Positions 6,250-58,046 of a stretch of DNA of 64,000 nt are shown here, piece by piece. Source of the stretch: Candidatus Gottesmanbacteria bacterium RIFCSPHIGHO2_02_FULL_39_11 (lineage in GTDB: Bacteria; Patescibacteriota; Microgenomatia; 2-02-FULL-39-11). Every line of letters begins with the position of its first letter. Position 1 is the stretch's first letter. The stretch spans positions 3,226-67,225 of the forward strand of contig MFJL01000026.1 of the NCBI GenBank assembly GCA_001779195.1, written 5' to 3'. The position numbers were made by a program, and so were the translations under genes. Under the pieces are notes generated by a model. It was not told where the DNA came from and searched no databases. It saw only the letters and a program-made list of their open reading frames with translations.

Positions 6250-6465
6250 TTATGCTTCTAAAACGGTATAGGGCATACCCGACAGTGCAGTGATAATATC
6301 GGACACTTTCAACTCATTGCTGCTTGTTATCGTCGTTTCTCCGTTATTGTTTTTAATCGCCACATCTGTAACTCCTGTAAGCCTTCCCACTTTTTTCTTA
6401 ATCAATTTGACACAAGCTTCGCAGGTTATCCCTGAAATTTTTAAAGTTAAAGTGTAATTATTCAT
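6250..6465 (-). CDS. copZ: copper chaperone (HMA domain protein, CopZ-like)
   Basis: 71 aa with GITCEACV metal-binding motif; its start overlaps copA. Confidence 0.8.
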   Translation of the reverse strand: MNNYTLTLKISGITCEACVKLIKKKVGRLTGVTDVAIKNNNGETTITSSNELKVSDIITALSGMPYTVLEA

Positions 6466-17466: not shown

Positions 17467-18864
17467 TTAAGTACCGGGAAAGGATATAGATACTGTGGTA
17501 CCATGTTCTACTTTGCTGTCGATATCTATTTTCCCGTGATGTGAGGAAATGATAGCCTGAGCAATCGCAAGACCAAGCCCGGAGCCTGAAGCTTTCTCAT
17601 TCTTTGACGCTCTATAAAACCGTTCGAAAATATGGGGCAGATCTTTTTTAGCAATTCCAGTGCCATTGTCTTTTATCTCTACATGAACCAGATTCCTTAT
17701 CTTATGTAACATAATGGTAACTGTTCCATTCTCGTGTGTGTACTTCATTGCGTTATCAACAATATTTAGTATGGCATGGAATAATTTATCTCTTTTCCCG
17801 TGTATTTTAATATCCGGCGCGGTTTCTCCGGTAATTTTAATATTTTTAGAAGAAGCCATTTTTGTCGCCAGTTCGCGGATTTCCTCCAGAAGCTCTGAAA
17901 GATCAAAAACTTCAAAATGAGCAGTAACATCCGCTTCTGACCACGCAAGATCCAAAATGTTTTCCAGCGTTTGCGACATTCTTTTATTATCGATAAGTGT
18001 TTCATCCAAAGCCTTTATATACTCATTTTTTCCTCTCTCTTTTAAGCGTATAATCTCGATATTGCTTCTTTGGGTAGCCAGAGGAGTTTTCAGTTCATGG
18101 GCTACATCTCCAATAAATTGCCGTTCCCTTTTAAATGCCGAATTTAACCGGTCCAAAAGACTGTTAAAAGTTACTGCTAATTCTTTAATCTCGTCATTAG
18201 TGTCGGGAGTATCTACTCGTTCATCAAGATTTTCGTGGCTTATCTTTTTCAGTTTTTCAGAAATGGATGCGATGGGTGCAATCGCGCTTTTGGCGAGAAG
18301 GTATCCCCCAAAAACAGTCGGCAATAAAAATACTACAAAAACGGCTCCAAGTATCAGGAGTAAATTGTTTAGAGAGTTTTCAATCACGTCAATCGGATGA
18401 CCGACAAACACAACCCCATACAACTGATTGTTTTTATAGATGGGGTCAATCCAGAAACGCATTCTAAGATCAGAAATAGTGTGATCTGTAATATGAGGGG
18501 ATTTTGCCGTCGCGGCTTGTTCAAAAAGTTGAGATAGTTTTTTATCGGATCGGTTAACGGTAACGGAACTGCCTACAATATTGCCGGTACTATCCATCAA
18601 AATTACAACCATTCCAGGAATATCGCTAAACTCAGAAAGAAAAGCATTTCGTGCCATCATCTGACATGTTTGACAGGATAGGTTCCCTTCTTTTGTGATC
18701 ACTTCAACAATCGAATTTCCGTGTGATTTAAGTGTTGCATCCGTTTGTGAATATAGAGTGTTTTTTGTAATGAGATAAAAACTGGCAAAAATGACTAGAG
18801 ATGCTATAAAAAAGGCAAGGGAATACCAAACCGTTAGACGAAATCTGACACTTCTCGTATTCAT
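17467..18864 (-). CDS. sensor histidine kinase (CusS/CopS-like)
   Basis: Two TM helices flanking a periplasmic domain containing CQTCQMM, then HAMP, HisKA H-box (HELKTPLA) and HATPase N/G boxes (DNGTGI, GSGLGL). Confidence 0.85.
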   Translation of the reverse strand: MNTRSVRFRLTVWYSLAFFIASLVIFASFYLITKNTLYSQTDATLKSHGNSIVEVITKEGNLSCQTCQMMARNAFLSEFSDIPGMVVILMDSTGNIVGSSVTVNRSDKKLSQLFEQAATAKSPHITDHTISDLRMRFWIDPIYKNNQLYGVVFVGHPIDVIENSLNNLLLILGAVFVVFLLPTVFGGYLLAKSAIAPIASISEKLKKISHENLDERVDTPDTNDEIKELAVTFNSLLDRLNSAFKRERQFIGDVAHELKTPLATQRSNIEIIRLKERGKNEYIKALDETLIDNKRMSQTLENILDLAWSEADVTAHFEVFDLSELLEEIRELATKMASSKNIKITGETAPDIKIHGKRDKLFHAILNIVDNAMKYTHENGTVTIMLHKIRNLVHVEIKDNGTGIAKKDLPHIFERFYRASKNEKASGSGLGLAIAQAIISSHHGKIDIDSKVEHGTTVSISFPGT

Positions 18865-19535
18865 ATTGATTCACTTATTTTATATCCGACACCGTGCAGG
18901 GTATGGATAAGTTTAACTTTCGCTCCTTTATCTACCTTACGCCTGATTGCAGCAAGAAAAACATCTACAACATTGCTCATGCTGTCAAAGTTATAGTCCC
19001 AGACATGTTCAATGATCATGGTTCGTGAAACAACTTCATCTTTATGACGGAGTAAAAGTTCCAGGACTGAAAATTCCTTAGGAGTAAGGGTAATAGGTTT
19101 TCCATTTCTTGTTAATAGATGTTTAATCGGATCCAGTTCCAAATCGGCAACACTTAGCGTGGGTGATGATTCCCCTTTACTGCGTCTTATAAGTGCGTGT
19201 ATTCGCGAGCGAAGTTCCAGATAGGCGAAAGGTTTTGTAATATAATCATCTGCTCCGCTATCAAGGCCGATAACTTTCTCTTCAAGCGTAGCACGGGCAG
19301 TGAGCATAAGGATTGGAGTTTTAATATTTTTCTTACGAAGTTCTTTGCAGATGGTTATCCCATCTGCTTTTGGCAGAGTTATATCCAATATAATAAGATC
19401 ATATTCTTCAGATTCTGCAAGATATTTTCCTTCTTCCCCATCATAAGCGATATCTACAGCAAATCCTTCTTCCGTAAGACCTTTTTTGACTACATTTGCA
19501 AGGCGCCTCTCATCTTCTACAAGAAGTATTCTCAT
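18861..19535 (-). CDS. OmpR-family response regulator (CusR/CopR-like)
   Basis: Receiver domain (MRILLVEDE, DLIILD) plus winged-helix trans_reg_C; it overlaps the kinase gene by 4 nt. Confidence 0.9.
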   Translation of the reverse strand: MRILLVEDERRLANVVKKGLTEEGFAVDIAYDGEEGKYLAESEEYDLIILDITLPKADGITICKELRKKNIKTPILMLTARATLEEKVIGLDSGADDYITKPFAYLELRSRIHALIRRSKGESSPTLSVADLELDPIKHLLTRNGKPITLTPKEFSVLELLLRHKDEVVSRTMIIEHVWDYNFDSMSNVVDVFLAAIRRKVDKGAKVKLIHTLHGVGYKISESI

Positions 19536-29786: not shown

Positions 29787-30650
29787 ATGAAGTCGGGCTA
29801 CGTCGCAATCACCGGAAAACCAAATGTAGGGAAGTCTACACTTCTTAATAATATTTTGGGACAAAAAGTATCTATCACCTCTCCCAAGCCGCAGACTACT
29901 AGGCAGTCCATCGAAGCCGTGTATGAAGATAAGAGAGGTCAGATAATTTTTGTCGATACTCCGGGAATTTTTAAAAAAGTTGAAGATCCGGTTTCTGCAA
30001 AAATAAACCTCGTTGCTCCAAAAGCTTTGGGTAGGGAAATCGCCGTTGCTGTCTATGTAATTGATCCATCCCGGGAACGGGATGAGGAAGACAATAAAGT
30101 TTTGGGGATGGTGCGTAAAATGAAAATTCCGAAAATTCTCGCTATAAATAAAATGGATATTAAGCATCCTTCTTTTCTTCCCCACTATAAATTCATGGAA
30201 GAAGAATTTGATAAAGTTGTCACCATATCGGGAATGTATAAATTAAACACCAACTATCTTATAGATGCCATTTTCGAATTACTTCCGGAAGGGGAGCCCA
30301 TCGTTAAACCGGGACCGCGTGCTACTCCTCTTTTAAATTTGGACAGCAAGCTTTTTATAGGAGAGCTTATACGGGAAAAAGCATATATATTCCTAAGAAA
30401 AGAACTTCCCTATACATTGGGAACGGTTGTTGATGAAGTTACGGAAAGAGACCAAAATTTGACGTATGTAAAAGCCCGGATTCTGACAACTACTGATAAA
30501 TATAAAAAAATGATTATTGGGAGTCACGGAAGAATGATAAAAGAAATCGGAATGGCGGCACGGAAAGAACTGGAAACTGCAACCGGAAAAAAATTCTTCA
30601 TAGATCTGACTGTTGAAGAAAACCCTCACTGGATAGAGACATTACTATAA
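29787..30650 (+). CDS. era: GTPase Era
   Basis: G1 GKPNVGKST, G3 DTPG, G4 NKMD, C-terminal KH domain. Confidence 0.9.
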   Translation: MKSGYVAITGKPNVGKSTLLNNILGQKVSITSPKPQTTRQSIEAVYEDKRGQIIFVDTPGIFKKVEDPVSAKINLVAPKALGREIAVAVYVIDPSRERDEEDNKVLGMVRKMKIPKILAINKMDIKHPSFLPHYKFMEEEFDKVVTISGMYKLNTNYLIDAIFELLPEGEPIVKPGPRATPLLNLDSKLFIGELIREKAYIFLRKELPYTLGTVVDEVTERDQNLTYVKARILTTTDKYKKMIIGSHGRMIKEIGMAARKELETATGKKFFIDLTVEENPHWIETLL

Positions 30651-31266: not shown

Positions 31267-32682
31267 TTAGACTAATTTTAATCTTTCTGTACTCTCTTCT
31301 TTCCCCAAAATTTCCATCGATTCATTTAAGGGTGGACTTACTTTTCGTCCGGTAACTGCTATTCTTACCGCCATAAAATAATCCGATGATTTTTTGCCGG
31401 TCTCGTTGACAACTTGTTGCATTGCTTCCCCAATAGATACAGCATCCCATTTTTTAACCGATTTTAATTTTTCCGAAGTTTTAGCAAAAATATCTTTCCA
31501 CGCTTTAATATCAATTTCATAAGCAGTCGGTTTTTCAAAAAAGAAAGAACTAAGAGGTAAATAATCGGAAAACTTTTTTATTCTCTCTTTAACCAGAGGA
31601 ATTGTTTTTCCAATAATTTCTTCCGGATAGTTATGATCTAAATAATTTGAAATTTGATCTTTGAGCTTTGGATTTTCCGTTTTACGGATATATTCCCCGT
31701 TTACCCACTCCAGTTTTTTCAAATCAAAAGAAGGGCCTACTGCTTTAAGATGTGCGATATCAAACTTTTTTATCATTTCCTCTATCGTGTATATCTCGAT
31801 ATCACCCGGATAAGACCATCCCATCTGTGCAAGATAATTTAAAATTGCTTCGGGCAAAAATCCCTGATCTTTATACCAACTAGCCCACACGGGATTTTTT
31901 CTTTTGGAAAGTTTTGAGTGATCCGGATTTCTGATAAGGGGCACATGACAAAATACAGGCAATTCCCAACCCAGATAGTGATAAAGAAGAATATGTTTTG
32001 GGGTGGACGAAATCCAGTCTTCGGCACGAATTACATGAGATATTCCCATAAGATAATCATCAACGACAACTGCTAAATGATAGGTGGGATATCCATCTGA
32101 TTTTAAAAGCACCTGATCATCAATAAGTTTATTTTCAAATGTGACTTTCCCCCGTATTACATCTTCAAACTGAGTAGTTCCGCTATCTGGTACATTTAAT
32201 CGAATTACATACTTTTCGTTCAATGATCTTTTTTTTGCTTCTTTAGAATTGATATTTTTGCAAAAGCCATCGTATAAAGTAGGTTCTTTTCTTGCGATTT
32301 GTCCTTTTCTCATTTCCTCAAGCCGTGCACTTGTGCAAAAACAATAATAAGCTTTTCCTTTTCCAACAAGTTCCTCGGCATATTTTTTATAAAAATTGAG
32401 TCTTTCTGATTGACGATATGGTCCATATTTACCTTCTGTATCGGGTCCTTCATCATAATCAAGATCAAACCATTTTAAGGAATTTAAAATCCGTGCTTCT
32501 GACCCCTGTACATACCGGGTCCGGTCGGTATCTTCAATCCGTACGATAAATATGCCGTTATTTTTTTTAGCATAAACGTAGTTAAGTAGAGCTGTGTATA
32601 CATTTCCTATATGAAGATCTTCTCCTGTTGGAGAAGGTGCGATGCGCACTCGGACTGGTTTTATCATGCGCTTATTATACAC
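31267..32682 (-). CDS. gltX: glutamate--tRNA ligase
   Basis: Class I HIGH-type motif (PSPTGEDLHIGN) and KLSKR motif (SKLSKRKN). Confidence 0.9.
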   Translation of the reverse strand: MYNKRMIKPVRVRIAPSPTGEDLHIGNVYTALLNYVYAKKNNGIFIVRIEDTDRTRYVQGSEARILNSLKWFDLDYDEGPDTEGKYGPYRQSERLNFYKKYAEELVGKGKAYYCFCTSARLEEMRKGQIARKEPTLYDGFCKNINSKEAKKRSLNEKYVIRLNVPDSGTTQFEDVIRGKVTFENKLIDDQVLLKSDGYPTYHLAVVVDDYLMGISHVIRAEDWISSTPKHILLYHYLGWELPVFCHVPLIRNPDHSKLSKRKNPVWASWYKDQGFLPEAILNYLAQMGWSYPGDIEIYTIEEMIKKFDIAHLKAVGPSFDLKKLEWVNGEYIRKTENPKLKDQISNYLDHNYPEEIIGKTIPLVKERIKKFSDYLPLSSFFFEKPTAYEIDIKAWKDIFAKTSEKLKSVKKWDAVSIGEAMQQVVNETGKKSSDYFMAVRIAVTGRKVSPPLNESMEILGKEESTERLKLV

Positions 32683-37401: not shown

Positions 37402-38901
37402 TTATCCTAAACTTTTTCTAAGCACTCCGGATCTGGTTATAAGATCCGAGACTTTTTTATGGTGCCGATCCTCGTAAATAGTGTCCGTCAATTCTTTATG
37501 TTCAAAATGAGACGGTTCTTTCGGTCCTAACTCAATATGAAAAATCTCTTCAATGCCTTCTATATCTTTTCGCAATCCGTTTAAGTTTTTTATGCTTCCT
37601 ATAGTCTTTTCAAGAGTATTTTGATTGAAAAAATAACCTGCCTGGATGATATCATTTTTAAGTGTGGGGTACAAATGTAAAATTTCAGAAAGTACACCTT
37701 TCTTTTTGGCATCTAGTAGTCCCCGCCCGGTTCCTATAATCTCAGGCGGAATCCCTATGGAATAAAGAGAAGCAGTAAAGGGAATTGCCCGGGGTAATGT
37801 CACTTTTCCGACTCCTCTGCTGTATCCAAACAATCCTACATGCTGCACCCGTTCGCGCCTTTTTGCTACCTGTTTACTCAGAATATTTATAAGCGGCGCA
37901 ATTTTTTCAATCGTTTCCCGATATGGTTTTTCAAAAAAGGAAACTGATTCTTTTGCAGTATTTTCAAGTTTCTTAGGAACGGAGACGGCACTTAGATGGG
38001 GAAGTTCCCTATTTAATTCGTGAATTGCTTCCTTGACTCTTTTCTCAGCATAATCATATCTAAAAGCACTTTGAATTGTGAGAGTTCTTACCCCCGGATA
38101 TTTTTGAATGGTTTCTGAAGTAGTTAACGGATTTACCCCTCCCCTAAAAGGAAGAGAGCCGGTCCCCAGCATCGGGAAAAGTTTTACTCCGGTTTCACTC
38201 TCCAAAGATGAGAAATTTGATAAAGCGCATCTGACTGCGAGCATTGTTGCAACCAGTCCTGAATTTAATGCCGGATCGCTTCTGGCACAATAGGGTCTTA
38301 GGTATTGGGGTTTTTTGCCGAATTTTTTAAGATGGAGTGAAATATATTTTTTTATGATGTTGCTTGATTCAAATATGCGCTCTACTTGCTCAAAAAGAGG
38401 AATAATTTCAATATGCTGAATGGAGTCTTCCATTTTCAACAGTTTGTGATCGATTGCGACAAGTTCACGAAATGCTTCCTGAATGTCCATAATCTCAGAA
38501 GCGGTCTCAGTAAGAGGGAGGATGGTTTCAAAAATAGGCGGGCTTGAGAATCCCAGACTTTCAGCCAACTGTGAACTGGTTATCATAACCATAAAGGCTC
38601 GTGCCAGTCTGAACTGCTTTTCAATCCGGGGATTAGGGATGCGGAATGTCAGAAATTTTTCTTTGCCCAGAGAGTGACTTTTAAAATAATCAAAGTATTT
38701 ATGCAAAAGCCGGTCAACAACGGCCTCATCCACAAACTTTCCCTCCCAGTCCCAGTTATATTCATCCATCCCGAGATTATTAAAACAATAATAAGCCTCG
38801 CGGGGTTCGGTTCCGGTTGATATATAAGCACGGGAATTCCAAAGAGGACGTCCTGCATTGTCCGGATGCTGAGTAGCCATGGTAGAGGGAATTTTGCGCA
38901 T
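37402..38901 (-). CDS. archaeal-type phosphoenolpyruvate carboxylase
   Basis: N-terminal IPSTMATQHPDN motif and ~500-aa length are characteristic of atPEPC (PpcA). Confidence 0.65.
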   Translation of the reverse strand: MRKIPSTMATQHPDNAGRPLWNSRAYISTGTEPREAYYCFNNLGMDEYNWDWEGKFVDEAVVDRLLHKYFDYFKSHSLGKEKFLTFRIPNPRIEKQFRLARAFMVMITSSQLAESLGFSSPPIFETILPLTETASEIMDIQEAFRELVAIDHKLLKMEDSIQHIEIIPLFEQVERIFESSNIIKKYISLHLKKFGKKPQYLRPYCARSDPALNSGLVATMLAVRCALSNFSSLESETGVKLFPMLGTGSLPFRGGVNPLTTSETIQKYPGVRTLTIQSAFRYDYAEKRVKEAIHELNRELPHLSAVSVPKKLENTAKESVSFFEKPYRETIEKIAPLINILSKQVAKRRERVQHVGLFGYSRGVGKVTLPRAIPFTASLYSIGIPPEIIGTGRGLLDAKKKGVLSEILHLYPTLKNDIIQAGYFFNQNTLEKTIGSIKNLNGLRKDIEGIEEIFHIELGPKEPSHFEHKELTDTIYEDRHHKKVSDLITRSGVLRKSLG

Positions 38902-38999: not shown

Positions 39000-40676
39000 T
39001 CAATTCGAAACTTTAACATCAATGAGCGTCAACTGCAACTTTTTCTCTCCATTCCACTCATTCTCGCAAACCCTATATACAATGTCCAAATGGTTATTTT
39101 CGATAAACTCGGATACCCTTTCCCCCATTCCAAAACCCATTGCTTCATAGTAAGTATTATTTTTTGAATCTTTTATTTTTATTTTCAGATGGCTCCCTGT
39201 TTTTCCTACAAACCTTTTTTCAACTATTTCCGCATTTTTTGAAAGAAACACCGGCTCCGGATTTGCAACCCCGAAGGGCTTTAACAATTCAACGGTTTTT
39301 AACAGTTTAGTATCTAAAGCGGAAAGGGGAAGTTGGGCATCAACCGGTATTTCCTTTTCCATTTTTCTGCCCTTTAATATTTTCTTTGCTTTTTTCTCTA
39401 AAACTTCTTGAAGTTTCTCTACATTTTCAAGTTTGACGGTAAATCCTGCTGCCATAGGATGTCCTCCTACATCTACAAACCAACCTATCTCCTCCCTAAA
39501 AAATTCAACGATGTTAAATCCCGCAACTGATCTTGCCGAAGCTTTGGCAAATTCCTTTCCTAATGACATTACAACTGAAGGCTTGTTGTATTTTTCCGTA
39601 AGTTTTCCTGCAACCAAACCGATTATTCCTTCATTAAATTCTTCATGGCTGATAATTAGTATCGACTCATCTTTTTTAACCATCTCAAATGCAATATCCG
39701 TTGATTCGCGGGTCAAGTCCTGACGATTTGTGTTGGTATAGCCCAATATGCGAGCCAGCTCACGGGCACGTTTACCATCTGTTGTGCATAACAGCCTTAG
39801 CGCATCCATTGCGTGGGTAATCCTTCCCATGGCGTTAATTCGCGGAGCAATGATGTGTCCTATGTGATAAGTATCTATTTCCTTATCTTTTAATCCTGAT
39901 TGTTCAATAAGGGCAAGTAAACCCAAACGCTTTGTATTATTTAATCTTTCCAGTCCGAATTTTACAATTGCCCGGTTAGGACCCGTCAGAGGAACCAGAT
40001 CAGCAACCGTTCCAATAACCGCCAAGTCCAGATAATTTTTTTTCAATTCTTCAAAAGAAATTTCTTTAACAACAGATCTTAGGTAATTTGAAAAAAACCA
40101 GGAAATTCCGGATGCGCACAACCCGGTGGTATGAACCAATGCAAAAGGCTTAGGAGGATTTTTAGGTATTAAATGATGATCAAGAATAATTACATCCATT
40201 CCTAAGTGTTTGGCATACTCTACTTTTTCTCCTGATGTTATTCCGTGATCAACGGTTATAAGAAGTGCAGGATTAAATTCCTTCTTTATATTTTCAATTC
40301 CAAGTTTTGATAAGCCATACCCCTCACGTACCCGGTGAGGAACATACGGCATGACATGCCCCCCTAACTTATAAAGAGTTTCCCAAAGAATGGCACCTCC
40401 TGAAACTCCATCCGCGTCATAATCTGTATAGACAACTATCGATTCCCGATTTTTAATTGCTTTTTTAATTCTTACAACCGCAATATCTGCTTCTTTTTTA
40501 TCAATTCCGGTTGTCTGAAACGTAATGCTTTCTAATGTAGGATGCAGAAAACTTTCTTCATCTTTTTTCCCTATATTCCTATTTTTTAATAAAATCGAAA
40601 ATAAATTTTGTGAAGTTACTTCTTCTTGCGATAACAGTTTCCACGTTGTCATAGGAGATATAGTACAATAATACAA
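39000..40676 (-). CDS. recJ: single-stranded-DNA-specific exonuclease RecJ
   Basis: DHH motifs (VVYTDYDADGVSG, ILDHH) and DHHA1 domain (GGHPMAAG). Confidence 0.85.
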   Translation of the reverse strand: MYYCTISPMTTWKLLSQEEVTSQNLFSILLKNRNIGKKDEESFLHPTLESITFQTTGIDKKEADIAVVRIKKAIKNRESIVVYTDYDADGVSGGAILWETLYKLGGHVMPYVPHRVREGYGLSKLGIENIKKEFNPALLITVDHGITSGEKVEYAKHLGMDVIILDHHLIPKNPPKPFALVHTTGLCASGISWFFSNYLRSVVKEISFEELKKNYLDLAVIGTVADLVPLTGPNRAIVKFGLERLNNTKRLGLLALIEQSGLKDKEIDTYHIGHIIAPRINAMGRITHAMDALRLLCTTDGKRARELARILGYTNTNRQDLTRESTDIAFEMVKKDESILIISHEEFNEGIIGLVAGKLTEKYNKPSVVMSLGKEFAKASARSVAGFNIVEFFREEIGWFVDVGGHPMAAGFTVKLENVEKLQEVLEKKAKKILKGRKMEKEIPVDAQLPLSALDTKLLKTVELLKPFGVANPEPVFLSKNAEIVEKRFVGKTGSHLKIKIKDSKNNTYYEAMGFGMGERVSEFIENNHLDIVYRVCENEWNGEKKLQLTLIDVKVSN

Positions 40677-40699: not shown

Positions 40700-42049
40700 A
40701 TGTCATATTCACTTCCTCAATCAGTACAAGATTTAATAAAACAATTTCGCCATTCTAGATTTGAAATCTATGCTGTTGGTGGAGCTGTTAGAAATATGCT
40801 TCTTGGCAAACTTTCAAACGATTGGGATTTTACAACTAATGCAAAACCCGAAGAGATTCAAAAACTGTTTCCTGACTCGTTCTATGATAATTCTTTTGGC
40901 ACAGTCGGAATTCCCATTAAGGATAATGATGGAAATACCGAGTCCGTATATGAAGTAACTACGTTTAGATCCGATAGGAATTATTCAGATTCACGTCATC
41001 CTGATTCCGTAGCATGGGGAAGCTCTTTGCAAGAGGACCTCTTGAGAAGAGATTTTACAATAAATGCTATAGTATATGATGGAAAGTCTATTATTGATCC
41101 GTTAAACGGACAGGAGGATCTGAAAAATAAACTGGTAAAAGCCGTTGGAGATCCCCAAAAAAGATTTCAGGAGGATGCGCTTCGCATGATGCGGGCAGTT
41201 CGCATTGCAACGGAATTGGGATTTGCAATTGATGAGAGTACTTTTGATGCAATCAAAAAAAACGCGCCCCTCCTTTCTAAAATTTCAGGGGAAAGAATAC
41301 GGGATGAACTTATAAAAATACTCTCCTCAGATTATCCCTCTGACGGGATCATGGTTTTAAAAAATTCCACACTTCTCGATAGTATCATCCCCGAGTTTGT
41401 AATCTGTTTTGGAGTTGGTCAGATAAGCCCTAAAAGACACCATACCCTGGATGTCGGGACGCATCTTATTGAATCTCTCAGGAATTGTCCCTCAAAAGAT
41501 CCCATTGTACGGCTTGCAACTCTTCTTCATGACATCGGAAAACCGCAGACGCGCAAAGAAATTGACGGAGTAATTACTTTTTATAATCACGAAATAGTGG
41601 GGGCGGGAATTGTCAGAAGAATACTGGATCGTCTCCATTTTTCCAAAAAAGACAGAGAAAAAATTTACCGGTTAGTAAGATTTCATCAGTTTACCGTTGA
41701 TGAAAGACAGACGGATTCGGCCCTTCGAAGAATTCTAAGAAATGTAGGAGTTGAGAATATGGATAACATGTTAGCTCTTCGAACCGGAGACAGACTAGGC
41801 GGAGGAGCACGGGAAACTTCCTGGCGACTTGAACTTTTTAAGAAACGCCTCATTGAAGTTCAGATTATTCCGTTTTCCGTGCAGGATTTAAAAATAAGCG
41901 GATATGATGTGATGAAAGAATTAAATATAAAACCCGGCCCTCAAGTCGGAAAAATCCTGAATGAAATTTTTGAAAAAGTGGAAAAAGGAGAGTTGAAAAA
42001 TGAAAGAGAAGTTTTATTAAAATATATTCAATCCAATCAGCATTTCTAA
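40700..42049 (+). CDS. cca: tRNA nucleotidyltransferase (CCA-adding enzyme) with HD domain
   Basis: Pol-beta NT motif (YAVGGAVRN...DWDF) plus an HD domain (HTLDV...HDIGK). Confidence 0.8.
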   Translation: MSYSLPQSVQDLIKQFRHSRFEIYAVGGAVRNMLLGKLSNDWDFTTNAKPEEIQKLFPDSFYDNSFGTVGIPIKDNDGNTESVYEVTTFRSDRNYSDSRHPDSVAWGSSLQEDLLRRDFTINAIVYDGKSIIDPLNGQEDLKNKLVKAVGDPQKRFQEDALRMMRAVRIATELGFAIDESTFDAIKKNAPLLSKISGERIRDELIKILSSDYPSDGIMVLKNSTLLDSIIPEFVICFGVGQISPKRHHTLDVGTHLIESLRNCPSKDPIVRLATLLHDIGKPQTRKEIDGVITFYNHEIVGAGIVRRILDRLHFSKKDREKIYRLVRFHQFTVDERQTDSALRRILRNVGVENMDNMLALRTGDRLGGGARETSWRLELFKKRLIEVQIIPFSVQDLKISGYDVMKELNIKPGPQVGKILNEIFEKVEKGELKNEREVLLKYIQSNQHF

Positions 42050-43393: not shown

Positions 43394-43494
43394 TGTCATT
43401 CCCGCGAAGGCGGGAATCCAATCATTTAGATAAAAATACTAATAATAAAACTTATTTATTAAGGAGTGGATCCCGGGTCAAGCCCGGGATGACA
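43394..43494. repeat. composite palindromic repeat (TGTCATTCCCGCGAAGGCGGGAATCC ... GGATCCCGGGTCAAGCCCGGGATGACA) between secD and secF
   Basis: Two hairpin modules with an AT-rich spacer fill the 117-nt secD-secF gap. Confidence 0.7.
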
Positions 43495-47843: not shown

Positions 47844-48728
47844 ATGCTTGAAAATAAAATAGCAATAATAACCGGTGCAGCAAGCGGAATTGGCCAAGAA
47901 GCAATAAGACGCTTTATTCAAAATCCAAATTATCAAGTATATGCTGTAGATAAAAACCCGCTAGTCTGTCAACTGTACGACAGAAGTTCTTCTGTTAAAC
48001 CAACTCTGTTAGATGTTAGAGAACGTGATGCAGTATCTCAATTCGTTCAACAAGTGCTGGAAAGAAACAGCAGTGTAGAGGTGCTTGTAAACGGAGCGGG
48101 AATTTTGAATGTTGGCAGAGTGGAAACATATTATGATATAGATGGAAAACCAAATTCAAAATATCAAGATCTCTTAGAAACGAATTATACGGCCCCTTTA
48201 AGATTAATGAGATTAATCTTACCTGTTATGAGGCAACAAGGTTCAGGGGTTATAGTAAATATTACCTCAACAAAAGAATATGTACAGGATCCCTATCATG
48301 TTCCTTATGCTGATTTAAAAGCAAAATTAACAAAAGTCACAAGAAGGATTTCACAGGTAGAAAGAGAAAATGGTATTAGAGTTGTTGCTTTGCAACCGGG
48401 AAATACGAAAACAAATATCGATCCGGGACTATGGACTCCGGGAAGTGATGAAGAAGAGTCATATCAAATACAAACATTAAATGACTGGTGGAGAAAAGTC
48501 TTTGGAAACAATCCCCGAAATGTCGCAGAAGTAATTTACCAAATTGCAGAAGGAGATATAACAGATGAACGGGTTTTGGTGGGAATGGATGCAAAACTTG
48601 CGGCAATTTTGCATGATCATCTACCCTATTGGGATAAAATATTTGCACTAGGTTATAAATCTGCAATGATTCTAACCAGAGTAAGTCTTGCAATTCAAAA
48701 TAAAAGGAATGAGCAAATTAATAAATAG
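47844..48728 (+). CDS. short-chain dehydrogenase/reductase (SDR) family oxidoreductase
   Basis: TGAASGIG cofactor motif and the YxxxK region (YADLK). Confidence 0.85.
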   Translation: MLENKIAIITGAASGIGQEAIRRFIQNPNYQVYAVDKNPLVCQLYDRSSSVKPTLLDVRERDAVSQFVQQVLERNSSVEVLVNGAGILNVGRVETYYDIDGKPNSKYQDLLETNYTAPLRLMRLILPVMRQQGSGVIVNITSTKEYVQDPYHVPYADLKAKLTKVTRRISQVERENGIRVVALQPGNTKTNIDPGLWTPGSDEEESYQIQTLNDWWRKVFGNNPRNVAEVIYQIAEGDITDERVLVGMDAKLAAILHDHLPYWDKIFALGYKSAMILTRVSLAIQNKRNEQINK

Positions 48729-48736
48729 GGTGAGAA

Positions 48737-49531
48737 TTAAAAGTGATAAAACGATATTCTTGCTTTCTTCTCTAATTTTAATAGTCCCTTCGTAACTAAT
48801 TCTGTTAAATAGTCGGTTGCGGCACTTTGGCTCACGTGAAGAAAAGTCCGAACCTCTTTATTGGTGACTTTTCCTTTTACTTTGACATAGTCAACAATCT
48901 TATTCATGCGAATCATCCTTCGCCGGGCACGTTCCTGGTTTGCATGGTTTAATTTTTCAAAAGCATTTCTCTTGATCCCTTCTTTCACTTGATCTTCAAT
49001 AGCATGCTTGTCAGATGAACCTATCTGATCGGCCGGATTCGTCTGCGGCAATCGGCCAGGTTCGTCTATAGTATCGGCCACATTGGTAGAAGACTCTACG
49101 GGATGATCGGCCGGATTGGTACTCTCCTCCCGGCCACTTTCGCTCACCGGATCGGCCATTTTGGTGGAATCTGGCCGATCGGCATTTGTGGAAGGATCAG
49201 AAGGCTGATCGGCCGGAATGGAATCAGATTTTGGGCCGGGTTCAACGGATTGGTTGGGAACAGGAGAAGCAGGAAGAGGTCGAATCTCGACAGGCTTTGA
49301 AGGTTCAACTTGAATAGGAGGAGGACTAACGGGAACCGGAGAAGCACTCGACGGAGACTCAACTGGAGAAGACGGAATGGAAGGTTCCTGCGGAAGGTTT
49401 TGAACAGGAGGGTTGGGTTGAGTAGGTAGGAACTCAGGAATAGAAACTTTCACGTCTTTAAGTTTATTAAGGATGTCGCCAAAAGACGTGCGTGAATTTC
49501 CCAAAGGAGGAACTGTAGCATCATCTGCCAT
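48737..49531 (-). CDS. Pro/Ser/Asp-rich low-complexity protein with C-terminal winged-helix DNA-binding domain
   Basis: C-terminal KEVRTFLHVSQSAATDYLTELVTKGLL wHTH. The N-terminal two-thirds is low complexity with NPAD/ADQ repeats, encoded by GATCGGCC-type DNA repeats. Confidence 0.4.
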   Translation of the reverse strand: MADDATVPPLGNSRTSFGDILNKLKDVKVSIPEFLPTQPNPPVQNLPQEPSIPSSPVESPSSASPVPVSPPPIQVEPSKPVEIRPLPASPVPNQSVEPGPKSDSIPADQPSDPSTNADRPDSTKMADPVSESGREESTNPADHPVESSTNVADTIDEPGRLPQTNPADQIGSSDKHAIEDQVKEGIKRNAFEKLNHANQERARRRMIRMNKIVDYVKVKGKVTNKEVRTFLHVSQSAATDYLTELVTKGLLKLEKKARISFYHF

Positions 49532-49594
49532 ACAAAGTCAGTATAGCATTCCAATCATTATACTGCTTTGATCAGGTAATTCGATAAAAAAAAT

Positions 49595-49623
49595 TTGACA
49601 AAAGCCGCAAAAGAAGATATATT
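49595..49623 (+). promoter_or_regulatory. sigma70-type promoter TTGACA-N17-TATATT for leuA leader
   Basis: Consensus -35 at 49595-49600 and -10 at 49618-49623, seen directly. Confidence 0.6.
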
Positions 49624-49722
49624 TTCTATAGTGTGATTACAAATTCTCTTTCAAACCTTTTAAATCTCCTCCTTCTTGGAGGCATTTAATGGGGTTTGAG
49701 AGAGCCAAAGTTTTAGAATAAG

Positions 49723-49745
49723 TCTCTCGAAAGAGAGATTTTTTT
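49723..49745 (+). terminator. intrinsic terminator-like hairpin tctctc-gaaa-gagaga + T7 within the leuA 5' leader
   Basis: Perfect 6-bp stem and 7 T residues. An upstream GAGAGAG (49699-49705) could alternatively pair with the 5' arm as an antiterminator. Confidence 0.5.
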
Positions 49746-49834
49746 ATGCAGCCGTTGCCGATTCTGAGTTTGACGAAGAAGCGGTTTACGGATGCATAAT
49801 CCGCCGAAGCCTTGGCGAAGGCGGATATTACCTT

Positions 49835-51334
49835 ATGAAACAAAAAATTTACATCTTTGACACCACCCTAAGAGACGGTGAACAAACCCCCGGAGCCAAA
49901 TTAAATACTGCCCAAAAAGTAATTTTGGCAAAACAACTTGAGAAACTGGGAGTGGATATTATTGAGGCCGGGTTCCCTATCTCATCTCCGGGAGACTTCC
50001 AATCGGTTGTTGAGATCGGAAAAGCAGTAAAAGACGTAGTCGTATGCGGACTGACACGGGCTATAAAAGGAGATATCGACCGTGCAGCTGAGGCGCTTAA
50101 ATATTGTAAACATCCCCGGATTCATACCGGTATCGGAGCATCGGATGTTCACATCGAATTTAAATTTAAAAGTACTAGAGAAAAAATACTTGAACAAGGC
50201 ATAGAAGCTGTAAAGTACGCTAAAAAATGTGTAGATGATGTTGAATTTTATGCGGAAGATGCAGGACGGGCTGATAATGGATTTTTAGCCAAAATGGTGT
50301 ATGAAGTTATTAAAGCCGGTGCAACCGTTGTAAATATTCCGGATACTACCGGATATTGTTTTCCTGAGGAATTCGGAGAAAAAATAAAGTATCTTTTTAA
50401 TCACGTGGAAAACATAGACAAGGCAATTATTTCCGTTCACTGCCATAATGATCTGGGTATGGCAACTGCCAATACGCTATCAGGAGTGGCAAATGGAGCA
50501 AGACAAGTAGAGGTTACGATAAACGGCATCGGAGAGAGAGCAGGAAACACATCTCTTGAGGAAGTTGTAATGGCTCTTTATACCAGGAAAGACAAAACGG
50601 ATTACTTTACCGATATTAAAACTGCTGAGATTTCCCCGGCAAGTAAAATGGTATCAAGCATTATGGGAATTCCCATTCAGCCGAATAAAGCAATAGTGGG
50701 AGCCAATGCATTTGCCCATTCCTCAGGAATACATCAGGATGGAGTTTTAAAGAGACGCGAAAACTATGAAATTATTGATCCGAAAACCGTAGGACTGGAT
50801 GCATCCCAAATTATACTTACGGCACGATCAGGACGTGCTGCACTCCGACATAAGTTGGGAGAACTTGGAATTGAATTAAATCAGGATGAATTAAACGGTT
50901 TGTATGAAGATTTTTTAAATCTCGCTGACCGGAAAAAAGAAATTTATGATGAGGATCTCCGTATGTTGGTAGGAGAAAAACAGGAGGGCAAGCCGCAAAA
51001 AATAAAATTGGATTTGATACATGCAATTTCAGGGAATCAAAACCTTCCAACCGCTTCGGTCAAACTTACCATCCTGGACAAAGAATACGAGTCAGCAGCA
51101 ACCGGAGACGGAGGAATTGATGCCGCTTTTAAAGCAATTGATCACTGTGTGAAGAAAAAATACAAGCTTACTGAATTTATGATTACTGCAGTAAGTGTGG
51201 GAACAGACGCGCAAGCCCGGGTAAATGTAGCAATTGAGTATAATAAAGAACTTTTTTGGGGCGTGGGTATTGATACGGATACCGTCGTTGCAGCAGCTAA
51301 ATCTTATATAGATGCGATAAATAAATTTATCTGA
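49835..51334 (+). CDS. leuA: 2-isopropylmalate synthase / (R)-citramalate synthase family (LeuA/CimA) with C-terminal LeuA-dimer regulatory domain
   Basis: HMGL-like N-terminus [12 protein letters not shown]; HxH metal site; C-terminal [12 protein letters not shown] regulatory domain. Confidence 0.85.
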
Positions 51335-51336
51335 TT

Positions 51337-52734
51337 ATGCCTAAAACTCTTTTTCAAAAATTATGGGATTCTCATATCGTCAAAAAAATAGATGATGAGA
51401 CTTTCTTAATCTATATCGATACTCATCTGGTGCATGAGGTTACTTCCCCCCAGGCGTTTAACGGACTGAGAAAGCGCGGAATCAAAGTAAGACGGAGGGA
51501 TAAAACTTTTGCAACATGCGATCATAATGTCCCGACATCCGATCAGAAAAACATACGGGATGAATTATCCCGCCTCCAAGTTGAAGCGCTTGAAAAAAAC
51601 TGTAAGGAATTTGAAATCCCCCTGTATGGACTGGATAGTCCCCATCAGGGAATTGTTCATGTAATAGGACCTGAACTTGGAATTACACAGCCGGGTGCAA
51701 CCATAGTCTGCGGAGATTCCCACACGTCCACTCATGGTGCATTTGGGACTTTGGCATTCGGAATTGGAACAACGGAAGTTGAACAGGTTTTAGCAACTCA
51801 GTGTCTGCTCCAATCTCCCTTAAAGACTATGGAAATAAAAATTGATGGAAAATTGGGGAGTGGTGTAACTGCTAAAGATATTATTCTGACCATTATTAGA
51901 AATATCGGAACTAAAGGCGGAAGCGGGTATGCAATTGAATACACGGGAGAAGCAATAAGAAATCTTTCAATGGATGGACGCATGACCATATGCAATATGA
52001 GTATCGAGGCAGGGGCAAAAGCAGGAATGGTTGCTGCGGATCAAAAGACATTTGACTATATAAAAGGAAAAATGTTTGCACCCTATGGAACAAATTGGGA
52101 TAAAGCTTTAGATTATTGGAAAAGTCTTCATACAGATAAAGGGGCTGCATATGATAAATTAATTGTAATTAATGGAAATACAATTGAACCGCTGGTAACA
52201 TATGGAACAGATCCTTCAACAGGAATTAAATTAAGCGAAAAAATTCCAAATTTTTCCGATTTAAAAACTCCTGAGGAAAAAATTACACTTACCAAATCTT
52301 TGGAATACATGCAGATTAAACCCGGAACATCTTTAAATAATTTTCCTATAGATTATGTGTTTATTGGAAGCTGTACGAACTCTAGACTATCCGATCTTCG
52401 TGAAGTTACAAACTTAATAAAAGGAAAAAAAGTAAAATCAGGAGTTTATGCTTTTGTGGTACCGGGATCCCGGCATGTAAAAAAAATGGCTGAGGAAGAG
52501 GGCTTAGACAAAATATTTATAAGTGCCGGATTTGACTGGAGAGGAGCGGGATGCTCAGCCTGTCTGGGGATGAACGAAGATAAAATTCCGGCAGGAAAAT
52601 ACTGTGTTTCGACAAGTAATAGAAATTTTCAAGGCCGCCAGGGCCCGGGAGCCCGCACTTTTTTGGCAAGTCCTCTAACCGCTGCAATTTCAGCAATAGA
52701 AGGAAAAATTGTTGATGTGAGAAATTATTTATAA
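51337..52734 (+). CDS. leuC: 3-isopropylmalate dehydratase large subunit
   Basis: Aconitase-family Cys ligands and the LeuC N-terminus. Confidence 0.9.
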   Translation: MPKTLFQKLWDSHIVKKIDDETFLIYIDTHLVHEVTSPQAFNGLRKRGIKVRRRDKTFATCDHNVPTSDQKNIRDELSRLQVEALEKNCKEFEIPLYGLDSPHQGIVHVIGPELGITQPGATIVCGDSHTSTHGAFGTLAFGIGTTEVEQVLATQCLLQSPLKTMEIKIDGKLGSGVTAKDIILTIIRNIGTKGGSGYAIEYTGEAIRNLSMDGRMTICNMSIEAGAKAGMVAADQKTFDYIKGKMFAPYGTNWDKALDYWKSLHTDKGAAYDKLIVINGNTIEPLVTYGTDPSTGIKLSEKIPNFSDLKTPEEKITLTKSLEYMQIKPGTSLNNFPIDYVFIGSCTNSRLSDLREVTNLIKGKKVKSGVYAFVVPGSRHVKKMAEEEGLDKIFISAGFDWRGAGCSACLGMNEDKIPAGKYCVSTSNRNFQGRQGPGARTFLASPLTAAISAIEGKIVDVRNYL

Positions 52735-52740
52735 ACATAC

Positions 52741-52826
52741 TGTCATTCCCACGTTTACCCTGAAAAGTTCGCTTTTTAGGGAAGGCGGGAATCCATCCTG
52801 GATCCCGGATCAAGTCCGGGATGACA
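52741..52826. repeat. composite palindromic repeat (family A + family B modules) between leuC and leuD
   Basis: TGTCATTCCCACGTTTACCCTGAAAAGTTCGCTTTTTAGGGAAGGCGGGAATCC + TGGATCCCGGATCAAGTCCGGGATGACA. Confidence 0.75.
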
Positions 52827-52836
52827 AATAATATAT

Positions 52837-53424
52837 ATGAAAAAAATTCACAAAATCACTTCTCATACTCTCCCATTAAAACACGAGAACATCGACACAG
52901 ACCAAATTATCCCTGCTAAATTTCTTAAAACCACAGTGCGGGAAGGAATCGGGGAGTTTTTCTTCCATGCATGGCGGGAGGATAAAGATTCCGTTTTTCA
53001 TTCTTCTAAGCATAAAGGGGCCAAAATACTTTTGGCAGGAAAAAACTTCGGAATCGGAAGTTCCCGCGAGCATGCTGTGTGGGCAACACTGGATTACGGA
53101 TTTGATGCCGTTATTTCTTCTTCGTTTGGAGACATTTTTTACAACAACTCGTTAAAAAACGGCCTTATTCCTGTCAAAATCGCACACAGCGAACTTTTGG
53201 AACTGTTTGGATTGGTTGAAAAAGACCACACCACCATTATCGAAGTAAATTTGGAGAGTGAGGAAATTCATCTTCCCAAACACGGAAAAAAATATAAATT
53301 CCCGATTGATCCTTTCCGGAAACAGCTTTTGTTAAATGGAACAGATGAATTAGGGTATCTTTTGACACTCGATAAAGAAATTTCAGAATTTGAAAATAAA
53401 CATAAAGGATTTGTGAATAATTAA
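52837..53424 (+). CDS. leuD: 3-isopropylmalate dehydratase small subunit
   Basis: Aconitase swivel domain, 195 aa. Confidence 0.9.
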   Translation: MKKIHKITSHTLPLKHENIDTDQIIPAKFLKTTVREGIGEFFFHAWREDKDSVFHSSKHKGAKILLAGKNFGIGSSREHAVWATLDYGFDAVISSSFGDIFYNNSLKNGLIPVKIAHSELLELFGLVEKDHTTIIEVNLESEEIHLPKHGKKYKFPIDPFRKQLLLNGTDELGYLLTLDKEISEFENKHKGFVNN

Positions 53425-53445
53425 TTATCATCTAAAAAATATTCA

Positions 53446-53471
53446 GATCCTGAAACAAGTTCAGGATGACA
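53446..53471. repeat. palindromic repeat, family C (GATCCTGAAACAAGTTCAGGATGACA) between leuD and leuB
   Basis: Perfect hairpin ATCCTGAAC/GTTCAGGAT; the same unit recurs at 59205-59231. Confidence 0.7.
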
Positions 53472-53477
53472 TAAGAT

Positions 53478-54542
53478 ATGCAAAAAACCATAGCTGTTTT
53501 ACCGGGTGACGGAATCGGTCCTGAAATAATTGAAGAAAGTATTAACATACTAAATGCCGTTGCAAAAAAATTCAATCATATGTTCGAGTATAAATATGGA
53601 TTAATCGGCGCTTCCGCAATTGATAAAACAGGTGATCCGTTTCCAAAAGAGACAGAAGAAATTTGCAGAACTTCCGATGCAATTTTATTTGGGGCAATCG
53701 GGGATCCGAAATATGATAATGACCCGCGGGCAAAAGTAAGACCGGAACAGGGAATTTTACGTCTTAGAAAGTCTTTGGAACTTTTTGCAAACATTAGACC
53801 AGTCAGTATTTACCCGGAACTTTTTGATATTTCTCCTCTGAAAAATGAAAAGCTTAAAAACGTAGATTTTATTATCGTCAGAGAATTGACCGGCGGGATA
53901 TATTTTGGTGAAAAGAAACGATTCAGTAGCAGTAAAAGTGCATCCGATGTCCTAACTTATTCAAAAGATGAAATAAAGAGAATTGCAAAAAAAGCATTTG
54001 ATCTTGCTAAAAAAAGAAAGAAAAAAGTGACATCTGTTGACAAAGCAAACGTTTTGGAAACTTCACGGCTTTGGAGAGAGACGGTAAATGAAATATCACA
54101 GGATTATTCAGGTGTTGAGTTAAATCATCTATTTGTTGACAATACTTCCATGCAGATTATCAAACGTCCCTCTGAATTTGATGTCATTCTGACGGAAAAT
54201 ATGTTCGGAGATATTCTCTCCGATGAGGCATCGGTGCTAGCCGGTTCAATAGGACTTCTTCCTTCCGCATCCATCGGAGAAAAATACGCGCTTTACGAAC
54301 CTATCCATGGAGCGTTTAATAAAGCCGCGGGTAAAAATATAGCAAATCCCGTGGGTACCATTTTATCCGCAGCCATGATGTTGCGGTTAAGTTTTAAGAT
54401 GGAAGAAGAAGCACAAGTAGTTGAAAACGCAGTGAAAGAAACGATTAAGGATGGGAAGAGAACTAAAGATACAGCACCCTCACAAGAAACTTATTTAGGA
54501 ACAAAAGAATTCGGGGAAATAATTAAGAAAAATTGTCTTTGA
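53478..54542 (+). CDS. leuB: 3-isopropylmalate dehydrogenase
   Basis: IAVLPGDGIGPEI N-terminus and the isocitrate/IPM dehydrogenase signature. Confidence 0.9.
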   Translation: MQKTIAVLPGDGIGPEIIEESINILNAVAKKFNHMFEYKYGLIGASAIDKTGDPFPKETEEICRTSDAILFGAIGDPKYDNDPRAKVRPEQGILRLRKSLELFANIRPVSIYPELFDISPLKNEKLKNVDFIIVRELTGGIYFGEKKRFSSSKSASDVLTYSKDEIKRIAKKAFDLAKKRKKKVTSVDKANVLETSRLWRETVNEISQDYSGVELNHLFVDNTSMQIIKRPSEFDVILTENMFGDILSDEASVLAGSIGLLPSASIGEKYALYEPIHGAFNKAAGKNIANPVGTILSAAMMLRLSFKMEEEAQVVENAVKETIKDGKRTKDTAPSQETYLGTKEFGEIIKKNCL

Positions 54543-55512: not shown

Positions 55513-55635
55513 TGTCATCCCCGACCAGATCGGGGATCCACTCATTAATAAATAAGTTTTATTCTAAGATTTTTTAAGGATTGGATTCCCGCCTGCCCTA
55601 AAAAGCGAATTTTCAGGGTAAACGCAGGAATGACA
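55513..55635. repeat. composite palindromic repeat (family D + inverted family A) between ilvE and ridA
   Basis: Seen directly. Confidence 0.7.
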
Positions 55636-57926: not shown

Positions 57927-58046
57927 TGTCATTCCCGCGTTTACCCTGAAAAATTCGCTTTTTAGGGCAGGCGGGAATCCATCGATGGATCCCGGGTCTC
58001 GGAACAATTCTGTCGAATTTTCCGAGTAAACAAGCCCGGGATGACA
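57927..58046. repeat. composite palindromic repeat (family A + expanded family B) between ilvC and thrC-like gene
   Basis: Seen directly. Confidence 0.75.

Follow-up and report, generated by a model that had tools for sequence, protein, structure and literature searches.

What controls leucine biosynthesis in the Gottesmanbacteria? These bacteria belong to the Candidate Phyla Radiation (CPR, or Patescibacteria), whose members are commonly portrayed as metabolically dependent and sparsely regulated. The question is raised by a stretch of 64,000 nucleotides from Candidatus Gottesmanbacteria bacterium RIFCSPHIGHO2_02_FULL_39_11 (contig MFJL01000026.1, positions 3,226 to 67,225; here called the window and numbered from its first letter), in which leuA, leuC, leuD and leuB form a four-gene operon on the plus strand. 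The 303-nucleotide (nt) intergenic gap between this operon and a divergent minus-strand open reading frame (ORF) of 264 amino acids (48737-49531) holds a leader that is very probably a classical ribosome-mediated leader-peptide attenuator, tuning leuABCD to the supply of charged tRNA-Leu. Several features that mark this class are found in the sequence or in structure prediction, namely an ORF with tandem leucine codons, a terminator, mutually exclusive pairings and a geometry that suits the ribosome.

Ribosome-mediated attenuation of the leu operon had been suggested before, from the letters of the window alone (here, the sequence-only reading). That class of mechanism is supported, as is the choice between pairings made by a GAGAGAG strand, whereas the two short ORFs put forward as sensors and the branched-chain amino acid signal are not; the actual sensor ORF and the large hairpin that it overlaps were missing from that inventory.

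A leucine-rich leader ORF conserved among Gottesmanbacteria

DNA upstream of close LeuA homologues was taken from GTDB genomes, JGI metagenomes and contigs encoding LeuA homologues. This gave 12 further distinct leaders (L161, L001 (=L081), L002, L003, L084 (=L085) and L162-L168), making 13 with that of the window. All 12 lie on Gottesmanbacteria-type contigs whose LeuA is 68-88% identical to that of the window, and the same elements stand upstream of leuA in the same order: a promoter, a start codon, an ORF of 16-22 codons, a box with the sequence GGTTTGAGAG, an A-rich spacer and a terminator.

The leader ORF of the window (Table 1) reads GTG ATT ACA AAT TCT CTT TCA AAC CTT TTA AAT CTC CTC CTT CTT GGA GGC ATT TAA, and it overlaps the 5' arm and the apex of a large hairpin described below. 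Each of the 12 homologous ORFs contains a run of three or four leucine codons; examples of the peptides are MKNLFLLNLFLLLPGEF, MRNLTLSSLNLLLGEDF, MGKLTLSNLDLLLLGEVI and VIRQSLSNLLNTLLLGGI. Checking the conservation of leader ORFs therefore gave two outcomes, as the two ORFs named by the sequence-only reading are not conserved and that at 49633-49689 is kept in frame throughout. In all 13 leaders this frame runs uninterrupted from the start codon to the stop codon, stops interrupt the +1 frame in 13 of 13 and the +2 frame in 9 of 13, and insertions or deletions upstream of the leucine run are always multiples of three nucleotides. Conserved leucine positions alternate between the CTN and TTR codon families, codon 4 being CTG, CTA, TTG or TTA and the last codon of the run CTT, CTG, TTG or TTA, which argues for selection on the amino acid and not only on the RNA sequence.

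Leucine accounts for 92 of the 236 leader codons (39%), and for 35-45% of the individual peptides. Judging from this codon content, and from a window peptide with two isoleucines and no valine, the effector signal is leucine and not the branched-chain amino acids in general. Within the leucine runs 43 of the 46 codons are CTC or CTT, both of which would be read by one tRNA-Leu isoacceptor. CTC is a minor codon, making up 7% of the leucine codons in the genes of the window.

A covariance model of the 5' half of the attenuator (R1), seeded with ten of the leaders, was searched against the window and 172 loci. It matched these leaders only, with one copy in the window, and recovered three members from outside its seed: L084 (39.6 bits), L167 (43.5 bits) and L166 (35.0 bits). 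Matches of R1 on the minus strand reflect hairpin symmetry only and were discarded. Neither a homologous ORF with a run of three leucines nor a match to R1 was found at about 150 leuA loci further afield, in Bacteroidota, Coriobacteriia, Nitrospirota and other groups. At five other CPR leuA loci (L082 and L169-L172; 64-67% identity) no leader was found within the 1.2 kb fetched, and leuA lies inside larger operons. ORFs with runs of three leucines also occur upstream of leuA in L034 and L039; these we take to be known alphaproteobacterial leu leaders and not relatives of the family described here.

Promoter and start of the leader ORF

The promoter TTGACA-N17-TATATT is present where the sequence-only reading had placed it, and from it the transcription start of the leader is predicted at about 49630-49631. 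A promoter of the form TTGAC[A/T]-N16/17-TATA[A/T]T stands upstream of the leader ORF in most relatives, the exceptions being L001, with TTGCAA, and L166, in which no -35 box was identified. The distance from the end of the -10 box to the start codon is 9 nt in the window and L161, 11-13 nt in nine others, 6 nt in L164 and 16 nt in L166, i.e. 9-13 nt in 11 of the 13 leaders. This spacing implies a 5' untranslated region of roughly 0-6 nt in most leaders, and the leader ORF would be leaderless or nearly so, as far as the promoter places its start. The start codon is GTG in both the window and its closest relative, L161 (GTG-ATT in each), and no Shine-Dalgarno (SD) sequence precedes the leader ORF of the window.

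Such a start is not out of place in this genome. An SD-like motif was found upstream of 8 of the 49 window ORFs of at least 150 amino acids, so the genome is SD-poor, and in about ten other window genes a TATAAT-like -10 box ends 6-12 nt before the start codon (example ORFs from this survey are listed in Table 1). This suggests that leaderless or near-leaderless mRNAs are widespread here, and the SD-less, promoter-proximal start of the leader fits the genome-wide pattern of SD-poor, promoter-proximal start codons.

Predicted mutually exclusive pairings in the leader RNA

The leader (49630-49840) folds with -80.9 kcal/mol (z = -7.25), and none of 200 shuffles folded as well. Folding of alternative structures, proposed with the sequence-only reading, predicts three mutually exclusive pairings between four segments: 1:2, 2:3 (the antiterminator) and 3:4 (the terminator). 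The terminator hairpin with its T7 run is where that reading had reported it; the hairpin (49720-49741) has nine pairs, three of them G-C, followed by the T7 run at 49739-49745, and all 13 leaders have a terminator of the CTCTC/GAGAG type followed by a T-run. The GAGAGAG that it had noted as an alternative partner (49698-49704) proved to be part of segment 2, the antiterminator strand, whereas the large 1:2 hairpin had escaped it.

Single features of the leader are within chance. One promoter match with at most one mismatch was found compared to 0.74 expected per window, and three terminator-like sites compared to 1.6 expected in 2 kb. Jointly, given the fold and the conservation across 12 contigs, the features of the leader are beyond chance.

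RNAalifold recovered the 12-base-pair (bp) outer stem and the apical stem of hairpin 1:2 without manual input, with compensatory changes in three pairs; of the apical pairs (36-40 with 46-50) one shows C-G to U-A changes. For the pairing percentages and shuffle tests, segments 1, 2 and 3 were cut by hand. In these, 98.3% of cells are paired in 1:2, with double changes in two pairs, and 86.7% in 2:3, with one double change. Pairing falls to 17-65% when the partner is shifted by 1-3 columns. Two relatives show changes carried across strands. In L165 a G-to-A change in segment 2 has its counterpart in C-to-T changes in segments 1 and 3 alike, and in L166 four strands have changed coherently (CTCTCC, GGGAGAGA, TCTCTCCC and GGAGAGA). 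The 2:3 pairing is 9 bp in the window and reaches 9-12 bp in the relatives, owing to pairs between the ...ACC of their terminator loops and the GGT of segment 2.

The A-rich spacer between segments 2 and 3 varies from 17 to 47 nt and has no conserved alignment, while the segments on either side of it persist. A motif, AATAAGCAAATAA, is common to the spacers of L003, L084, L162 and L163; the window and L161 have a short spacer of 17-18 nt without AATAAGCAAATAA.

In the 12 leaders that were folded, predicted energies are -19 to -44 kcal/mol for 1:2 (window -29.4), -9.6 to -13.8 kcal/mol for 3:4 (window -11.5) and -9 to -17 kcal/mol for 2:3 (window -9.2), except for L084, whose 2:3 value of -29.4 kcal/mol includes the hairpin of an inserted GC palindrome. 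With a ribosome placed on the last leucine codon of the run, segment 1 masked and segment 4 absent, the fold of lowest energy is 2:3 in all 12 leaders. The distances agree with this arrangement. In 10 of 12 leaders 15-18 nt separate the end of the leucine run from segment 2, which would thus stay free when a ribosome stalls on the run; in 11 of 12 leaders the end of the stop codon lies 5-16 nt before the end of segment 2, which would thus be covered by a ribosome at termination. The exception to the latter is L084.

The palindrome of L084 (1390-1420; also in L085) is a perfect 20-nt GC-rich one, CCTGCCTGCCGGCAGGCAGG, located between the leader stop and segment 2, so that the 1:2 hairpin is longer and the stop codon is pushed away from segment 2. 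In this leader the very stable 1:2 hairpin (predicted at -43.5 kcal/mol) would have to serve as anti-antiterminator.

A model of leucine-dependent attenuation

The proposed sequence of events in the window is as follows. Transcription would begin a few nt upstream of the GTG at 49633, and a ribosome would initiate at or beside the 5' end of the RNA and translate the 18-codon leader. When Leu-tRNA is plentiful the ribosome would proceed to the TAA stop and cover segment 2, and following its release segments 1 and 2 could form the very stable 1:2 hairpin (-29 kcal/mol). With segment 2 either covered or held in 1:2, segment 3 would pair with segment 4, and the terminator would stop transcription before leuA. 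When Leu-tRNA is scarce the ribosome would stall on the CTC CTC CTT CTT run and occupy or sterically block segment 1, its 3' edge lying about 5-14 nt short of segment 2. Segment 2 could then pair with segment 3 as it emerges (49695-49703 with 49723-49731), no terminator would form, and RNA polymerase would enter leuA. Positions of all the elements are given in Table 1.

Table 1. Positions of the leader elements, the leu operon and other features of the window
Feature	Position	Strand	Remarks
-35 box TTGACA	49595-49600	+	11/12 match jointly with the -10 box; 17-nt spacer
-10 box TATATT	49618-49623	+	9 nt upstream of the GTG start
Leader-peptide ORF, GTG...TAA, MITNSLSNLLNLLLLGGI	49633-49689	+	18 codons, 7 Leu
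Segment 1, CTCTTTCAAACC	49646-49657	+	5' strand of the 12-bp outer stem, inside the leader ORF
Large hairpin 1:2	49646-49704	+	Folding and RNAalifold
Regulatory run CTC CTC CTT CTT	49666-49677	+	Four Leu codons in succession
Apical stem of hairpin 1:2	49668-49682	+	CCUCC (Leu codons) with GGAGG, loop UUCUU
Leader stop TAA	49687-49689	+	3 nt upstream of segment 2
Segment 2, GGTTTGAGAGAG	49693-49704	+	Switch strand; pairs with segment 1 or segment 3; almost invariant in relatives
Antiterminator	49695-49703 (TTTGAGAGA) with 49723-49731 (TCTCTCGAA)	+	9 bp
Intrinsic terminator	49720-49745	+	Stem AAGTCTCTC/GAGAGATTT, GAAA loop, T7
Segment 3 and part of the terminator loop, TCTCTCGAA	49723-49731	+	Partners: segment 2 (antiterminator) or segment 4 (terminator)
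Post-terminator hairpins 3 and 4	49745-49798 and 49799-49826	+	Fold prediction
leuA	49835-51334	+	LeuA NF002086 (NCBIfam), 734.8 bits, cut-off 532
leuC	51337-52734	+	Above NCBIfam equivalog cut-off
leuD	52837-53424	+	Above NCBIfam equivalog cut-off
leuB	53478-54542	+	Above NCBIfam equivalog cut-off
Regulated operon leuA-leuC-leuD-leuB	49835-54542	+	Directly downstream of the attenuator
Example ORFs, survey of SD motifs and -10 boxes	18861-19535, 29787-30650, 39000-40676, 40700-42049, 47844-48728, 48737-49531		
Palindromic repeat copies	43394-43494, 52741-52826, 55513-55635, 57927-58046		52741-52826 is the leuC-leuD spacer
Single repeat termini	29458, 36153, 47623, 57104		Repeat also upstream of leuA in L095
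Phosphoenolpyruvate carboxylase and metal-ATPase/DsbD cluster (listed jointly)	37402-38901, 3289-6246, 6462-8228, 8640-10826	-	

Evidence against the model and alternative explanations

Several observations weigh against a ribosome-mediated attenuator. Short ORFs containing four successive leucines number four in the window compared to 1.1 in random sequence; such an ORF is not significant alone, so the coding argument rests on position and conservation. Covariation is weak, as the observed score was attained by 28 of 500 shuffles for 1:2 and by 99 of 500 for 2:3. These controls are not significant because segment 2 hardly varies, and its near-invariance can in turn be ascribed to the need of one strand to fit two alternative partners. 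The alignment shows that complementarity is conserved and that a few changes are coherent, which falls short of proven covariation, and the case for the switch rests on that complementarity, on the coherent multi-strand changes and on geometry. At -9.2 kcal/mol the antiterminator of the window is less stable than its terminator at -11.5 kcal/mol, and the choice between them must therefore be made kinetically, as it is in the trp attenuator of Escherichia coli. The 20-nt palindrome between stop codon and segment 2 in L084 breaks the rule that the stop places the ribosome over segment 2. Finally, the GTG of the leader has no SD sequence, and the predicted 5' end is just some 2-3 nt away from it; by E. 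coli standards an SD-less, 5'-proximal GTG would be a poor initiation site.

The sensor could instead be sought where the sequence-only reading had put it, in a 10-codon ORF at 49689-49721 and/or a 17-codon ORF at 49746-49799, with the GC-rich hairpin at 49799-49826 masking the ribosome-binding site of leuA. Both ORFs and the hairpin exist; a GGAGG (49678-49682) that resembles an SD sequence lies 6 nt before the ATG at 49689, and the hairpin ends 8 nt before the leuA ATG. Neither ORF is conserved, however. At the position of the first, an ATG is missing from L161 and the reading is MWFERG in L001 and MV in L002, and in the window this ORF has a single leucine and no run of regulatory codons. 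The second lies after the terminator, which it cannot control, is absent from L001 and L163, where the T-run abuts leuA, and reads MRALMSVTNLTHSNLP in L161, with a frame-breaking indel. The GGAGG is accounted for by its pairing with the CCUCC of the leucine codons. Sequestration of an SD sequence finds no support in a genome with SD-like motifs before 8 of 49 ORFs, and no SD motif was found at leuA in the relatives. The comparative data largely refute this arrangement, and it retains hardly any probability.

A different possibility is that the same three-strand switch is run by an RNA-binding protein, uncharged tRNA or a small ligand in place of a translating ribosome. The effector would bind the invariant GGTTTGAGAG strand or the 1:2 hairpin, and the leucine-rich ORF would be a by-product of a CU-rich stem, as CU-rich strands give leucine and serine in one frame by default. 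The near-invariance of segment 2 would be expected of a binding site, yet it is equally expected for a strand with two partners. The ORF has no SD sequence and in the window starts with GTG; against this, all 13 leaders preserve the frame, the start and the stop, the lengths of indels are divisible by three, leucine codons switch synonymously between CTN and TTR, and the stop and the leucine run are placed relative to segment 2 as suits a ribosome footprint. Mutational analysis of actinobacterial leuA leaders, in Streptomyces coelicolor, is reported not to agree with strictly classical attenuation (PMC1262725). No T-box or riboswitch match was found here in Rfam even at E values up to 10. We regard control by such an effector as unlikely, whether it acts on the strand or on the hairpin.

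The leader might also not regulate at all, being a structured 5' region with a leaky terminator or stabilising hairpins whose similarity among relatives reflects shared ancestry only. This would accommodate the non-significant covariation statistics and the fact that the promoter, the terminator and the four-leucine ORF are each compatible with chance. It does not readily explain why the ORF, segments 1-4 and their spacing persist at LeuA identities of 68-88% while spacers and flanks have diverged or been replaced, nor the coherent multi-strand changes in L165 and L166, and where a terminator separates an essential biosynthetic operon from its promoter, some conditional way past it is needed. 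Absence of regulation is therefore considered very unlikely. An ORF of 68 amino acids on the minus strand that spans the whole leader (49637-49843, TTG start) was also considered; it has no counterpart in L161 and was dismissed as spurious.

Comparison with known attenuators

In E. coli, leuL encodes a short leader peptide with four consecutive leucine codons, and exclusive 1:2, 2:3 and 3:4 hairpins with an intrinsic terminator lie upstream of leuA. This system of E. coli and Salmonella (RF00512, Leu_leader) is the closest functional analogue of the proposed ribosome-mediated attenuator, with the same operon, a run of four leucines and the same logic, but the family described here has no detectable sequence or structure homology to RF00512. 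Its peptides are shorter (16-22 amino acids), with extra scattered leucines and a CTC/CTT run instead of CUA, and its ORF lacks an SD sequence and starts within a few nt of the 5' end, with GTG in the window.

At gathering thresholds Rfam identified only one tRNA in the whole window. A permissive scan of 49500-49900 gave sub-threshold matches only, and at E values up to 10 none of these was to Leu_leader, T-box (RF00230) or a riboswitch. The best resemblances were a full-length match to Phe_leader (RF01859; 31.3 bits, E = 0.0019, gathering score 55) and one to His_leader (RF00514; 16.9 bits, gathering score 49). Both share with the window an arrangement in which a terminator follows a large hairpin, but their regulatory codons are for other amino acids, and the window is not a member of either.

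Leaderless leader peptides have been proposed for attenuation in Deinococcus deserti, where the start codon is at or within about 1 nt of transcription starts mapped by differential RNA-seq (PMC4007540). A leaderless start is therefore a known variant of the mechanism. The likeness would lie in a leader start at or near the transcription start, which in the window is predicted from the promoter; D. deserti belongs to another phylum and there is no sequence relationship. In the attenuator of Staphylococcus aureus, the element precedes ilvD in a larger ilv-leu operon. There, the attenuator peptide is encoded by an upstream ORF with a leucine run, which controls genes for branched-chain amino acids by way of alternative RNA structures (PMC5794164). 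The LEU element of actinobacterial leuA also controls the gene through an upstream ORF with a leucine run and alternative RNA structures, but in that element the run of leucine codons pairs with the leuA SD sequence in a pseudoknot and there is no clear terminator (PMC1262725), whereas the window has a canonical terminator with T-run and no pairing with an SD sequence.

The class of attenuator is well known, and leader-peptide attenuation is a textbook mechanism; what is new is a sequence family outside every Rfam family, in a host group for which no report was found. A full-text literature search, of incomplete coverage, returned no paper linking leader-peptide attenuation with CPR/Patescibacteria. 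It is possible, and we put it forward tentatively, that this is the first recognised family of cis-regulatory attenuators in CPR, here in Gottesmanbacteria, with a leader translated from a leaderless or near-leaderless mRNA, in the window lineage from a 5'-proximal GUG, and in a genome with little SD-led initiation. Its value lies mainly in the host lineage and in the putative leaderless translation start. If the proposal is true, CPR bacteria with reduced genomes couple transcription and translation tightly enough for attenuation, and the family could be used as a natural reporter of leaderless initiation and of amino-acid autonomy in uncultured CPR. A complete leuABCD with a dedicated leucine switch would imply that the host synthesises its own leucine, meets a fluctuating supply of it and has working transcription-translation coupling, and the attenuator would offer testable evidence for leaderless translation in the Gottesmanbacteria lineage. 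The 13 aligned leaders and model R1 are a possible seed for a new Rfam family and for better annotation of CPR genomes.

Region between the terminator and leuA

Between the T-run and the leuA ATG lie 90 nt (49746-49834) that are predicted to form a pair of hairpins (3 and 4), and this region is homologous in L161 only. There the stem of hairpin 4 is preserved via a C-G to U-A double change, and the distance from hairpin 4 to leuA is about 150 nt compared to 8 nt in the window. The region is missing from L001 and L163, in which the T-run adjoins the leuA ATG, and other relatives have different GC-rich inserts at the same position. Hairpin 3 (beginning ATGCA and ending TGCAT-AA) coincides with the ORF at 49746-49799, the peptide of which is not conserved. 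From this distribution the post-terminator hairpins are regarded as a lineage-specific insert outside the core attenuator. No second copy of the palindrome ATCCGCC...GGCGGAT (49799-49826) was found in the window. The 3' half of hairpin 4, GCGAAGGCGG, resembles a GC-rich module of the intergenic repeats of the window, and one might speculate that the insert is related to the GC-rich palindromic modules of intergenic regions.

Some relatives carry other sequences at this place. An extra ORF of 120-134 amino acids without a Pfam match lies between attenuator and leuA in L167 (790-1194) and L168 (842-1204), and is presumably co-regulated with the leu operon. L165 (1070-1200; identical to L083 1-136) has a different structured insert between terminator and leuA, in which the hairpins GGGTGCCC...GGGCAC and CTATTTCTTT...AAAGAAATAG are mutually exclusive.

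The leu operon and other features of the window

Named matches to LeuA are nearly all from Gottesmanbacteria, at ~66-72% identity, the exceptions being other Microgenomates/CPR and one partial Chryseolinea entry; the nearest relative is on a Logan contig, with 88% identity. The named best matches of a glutamyl-tRNA synthetase on the minus strand (31267-32682) are likewise nearly all Gottesmanbacteria at ~66-72% identity, the exceptions being other Microgenomates/CPR.

Intergenic palindromic repeats of about 85-125 nt, with inverted termini TGTCATyCC ... GGrATGACA, recur in the window (Table 1). They are composed of GC-rich hairpin modules, e.g. TTCCCGCGAAGGCGGGAA and CCCGGATCAAGyCCGGG, and often end 10-15 nt upstream of a start codon. 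Twelve repeat termini were counted, compared to 1.0 expected. Going by their sequence, they look like repetitive extragenic palindromic (REP) or miniature inverted-repeat transposable element (MITE) type elements of this lineage.

The window also encodes a phosphoenolpyruvate carboxylase of the archaeal type (PF14010, E = 4e-137), and two P-type heavy-metal ATPases that cluster with a DsbD/cupredoxin protein. Both are noteworthy metabolic content for a CPR genome.

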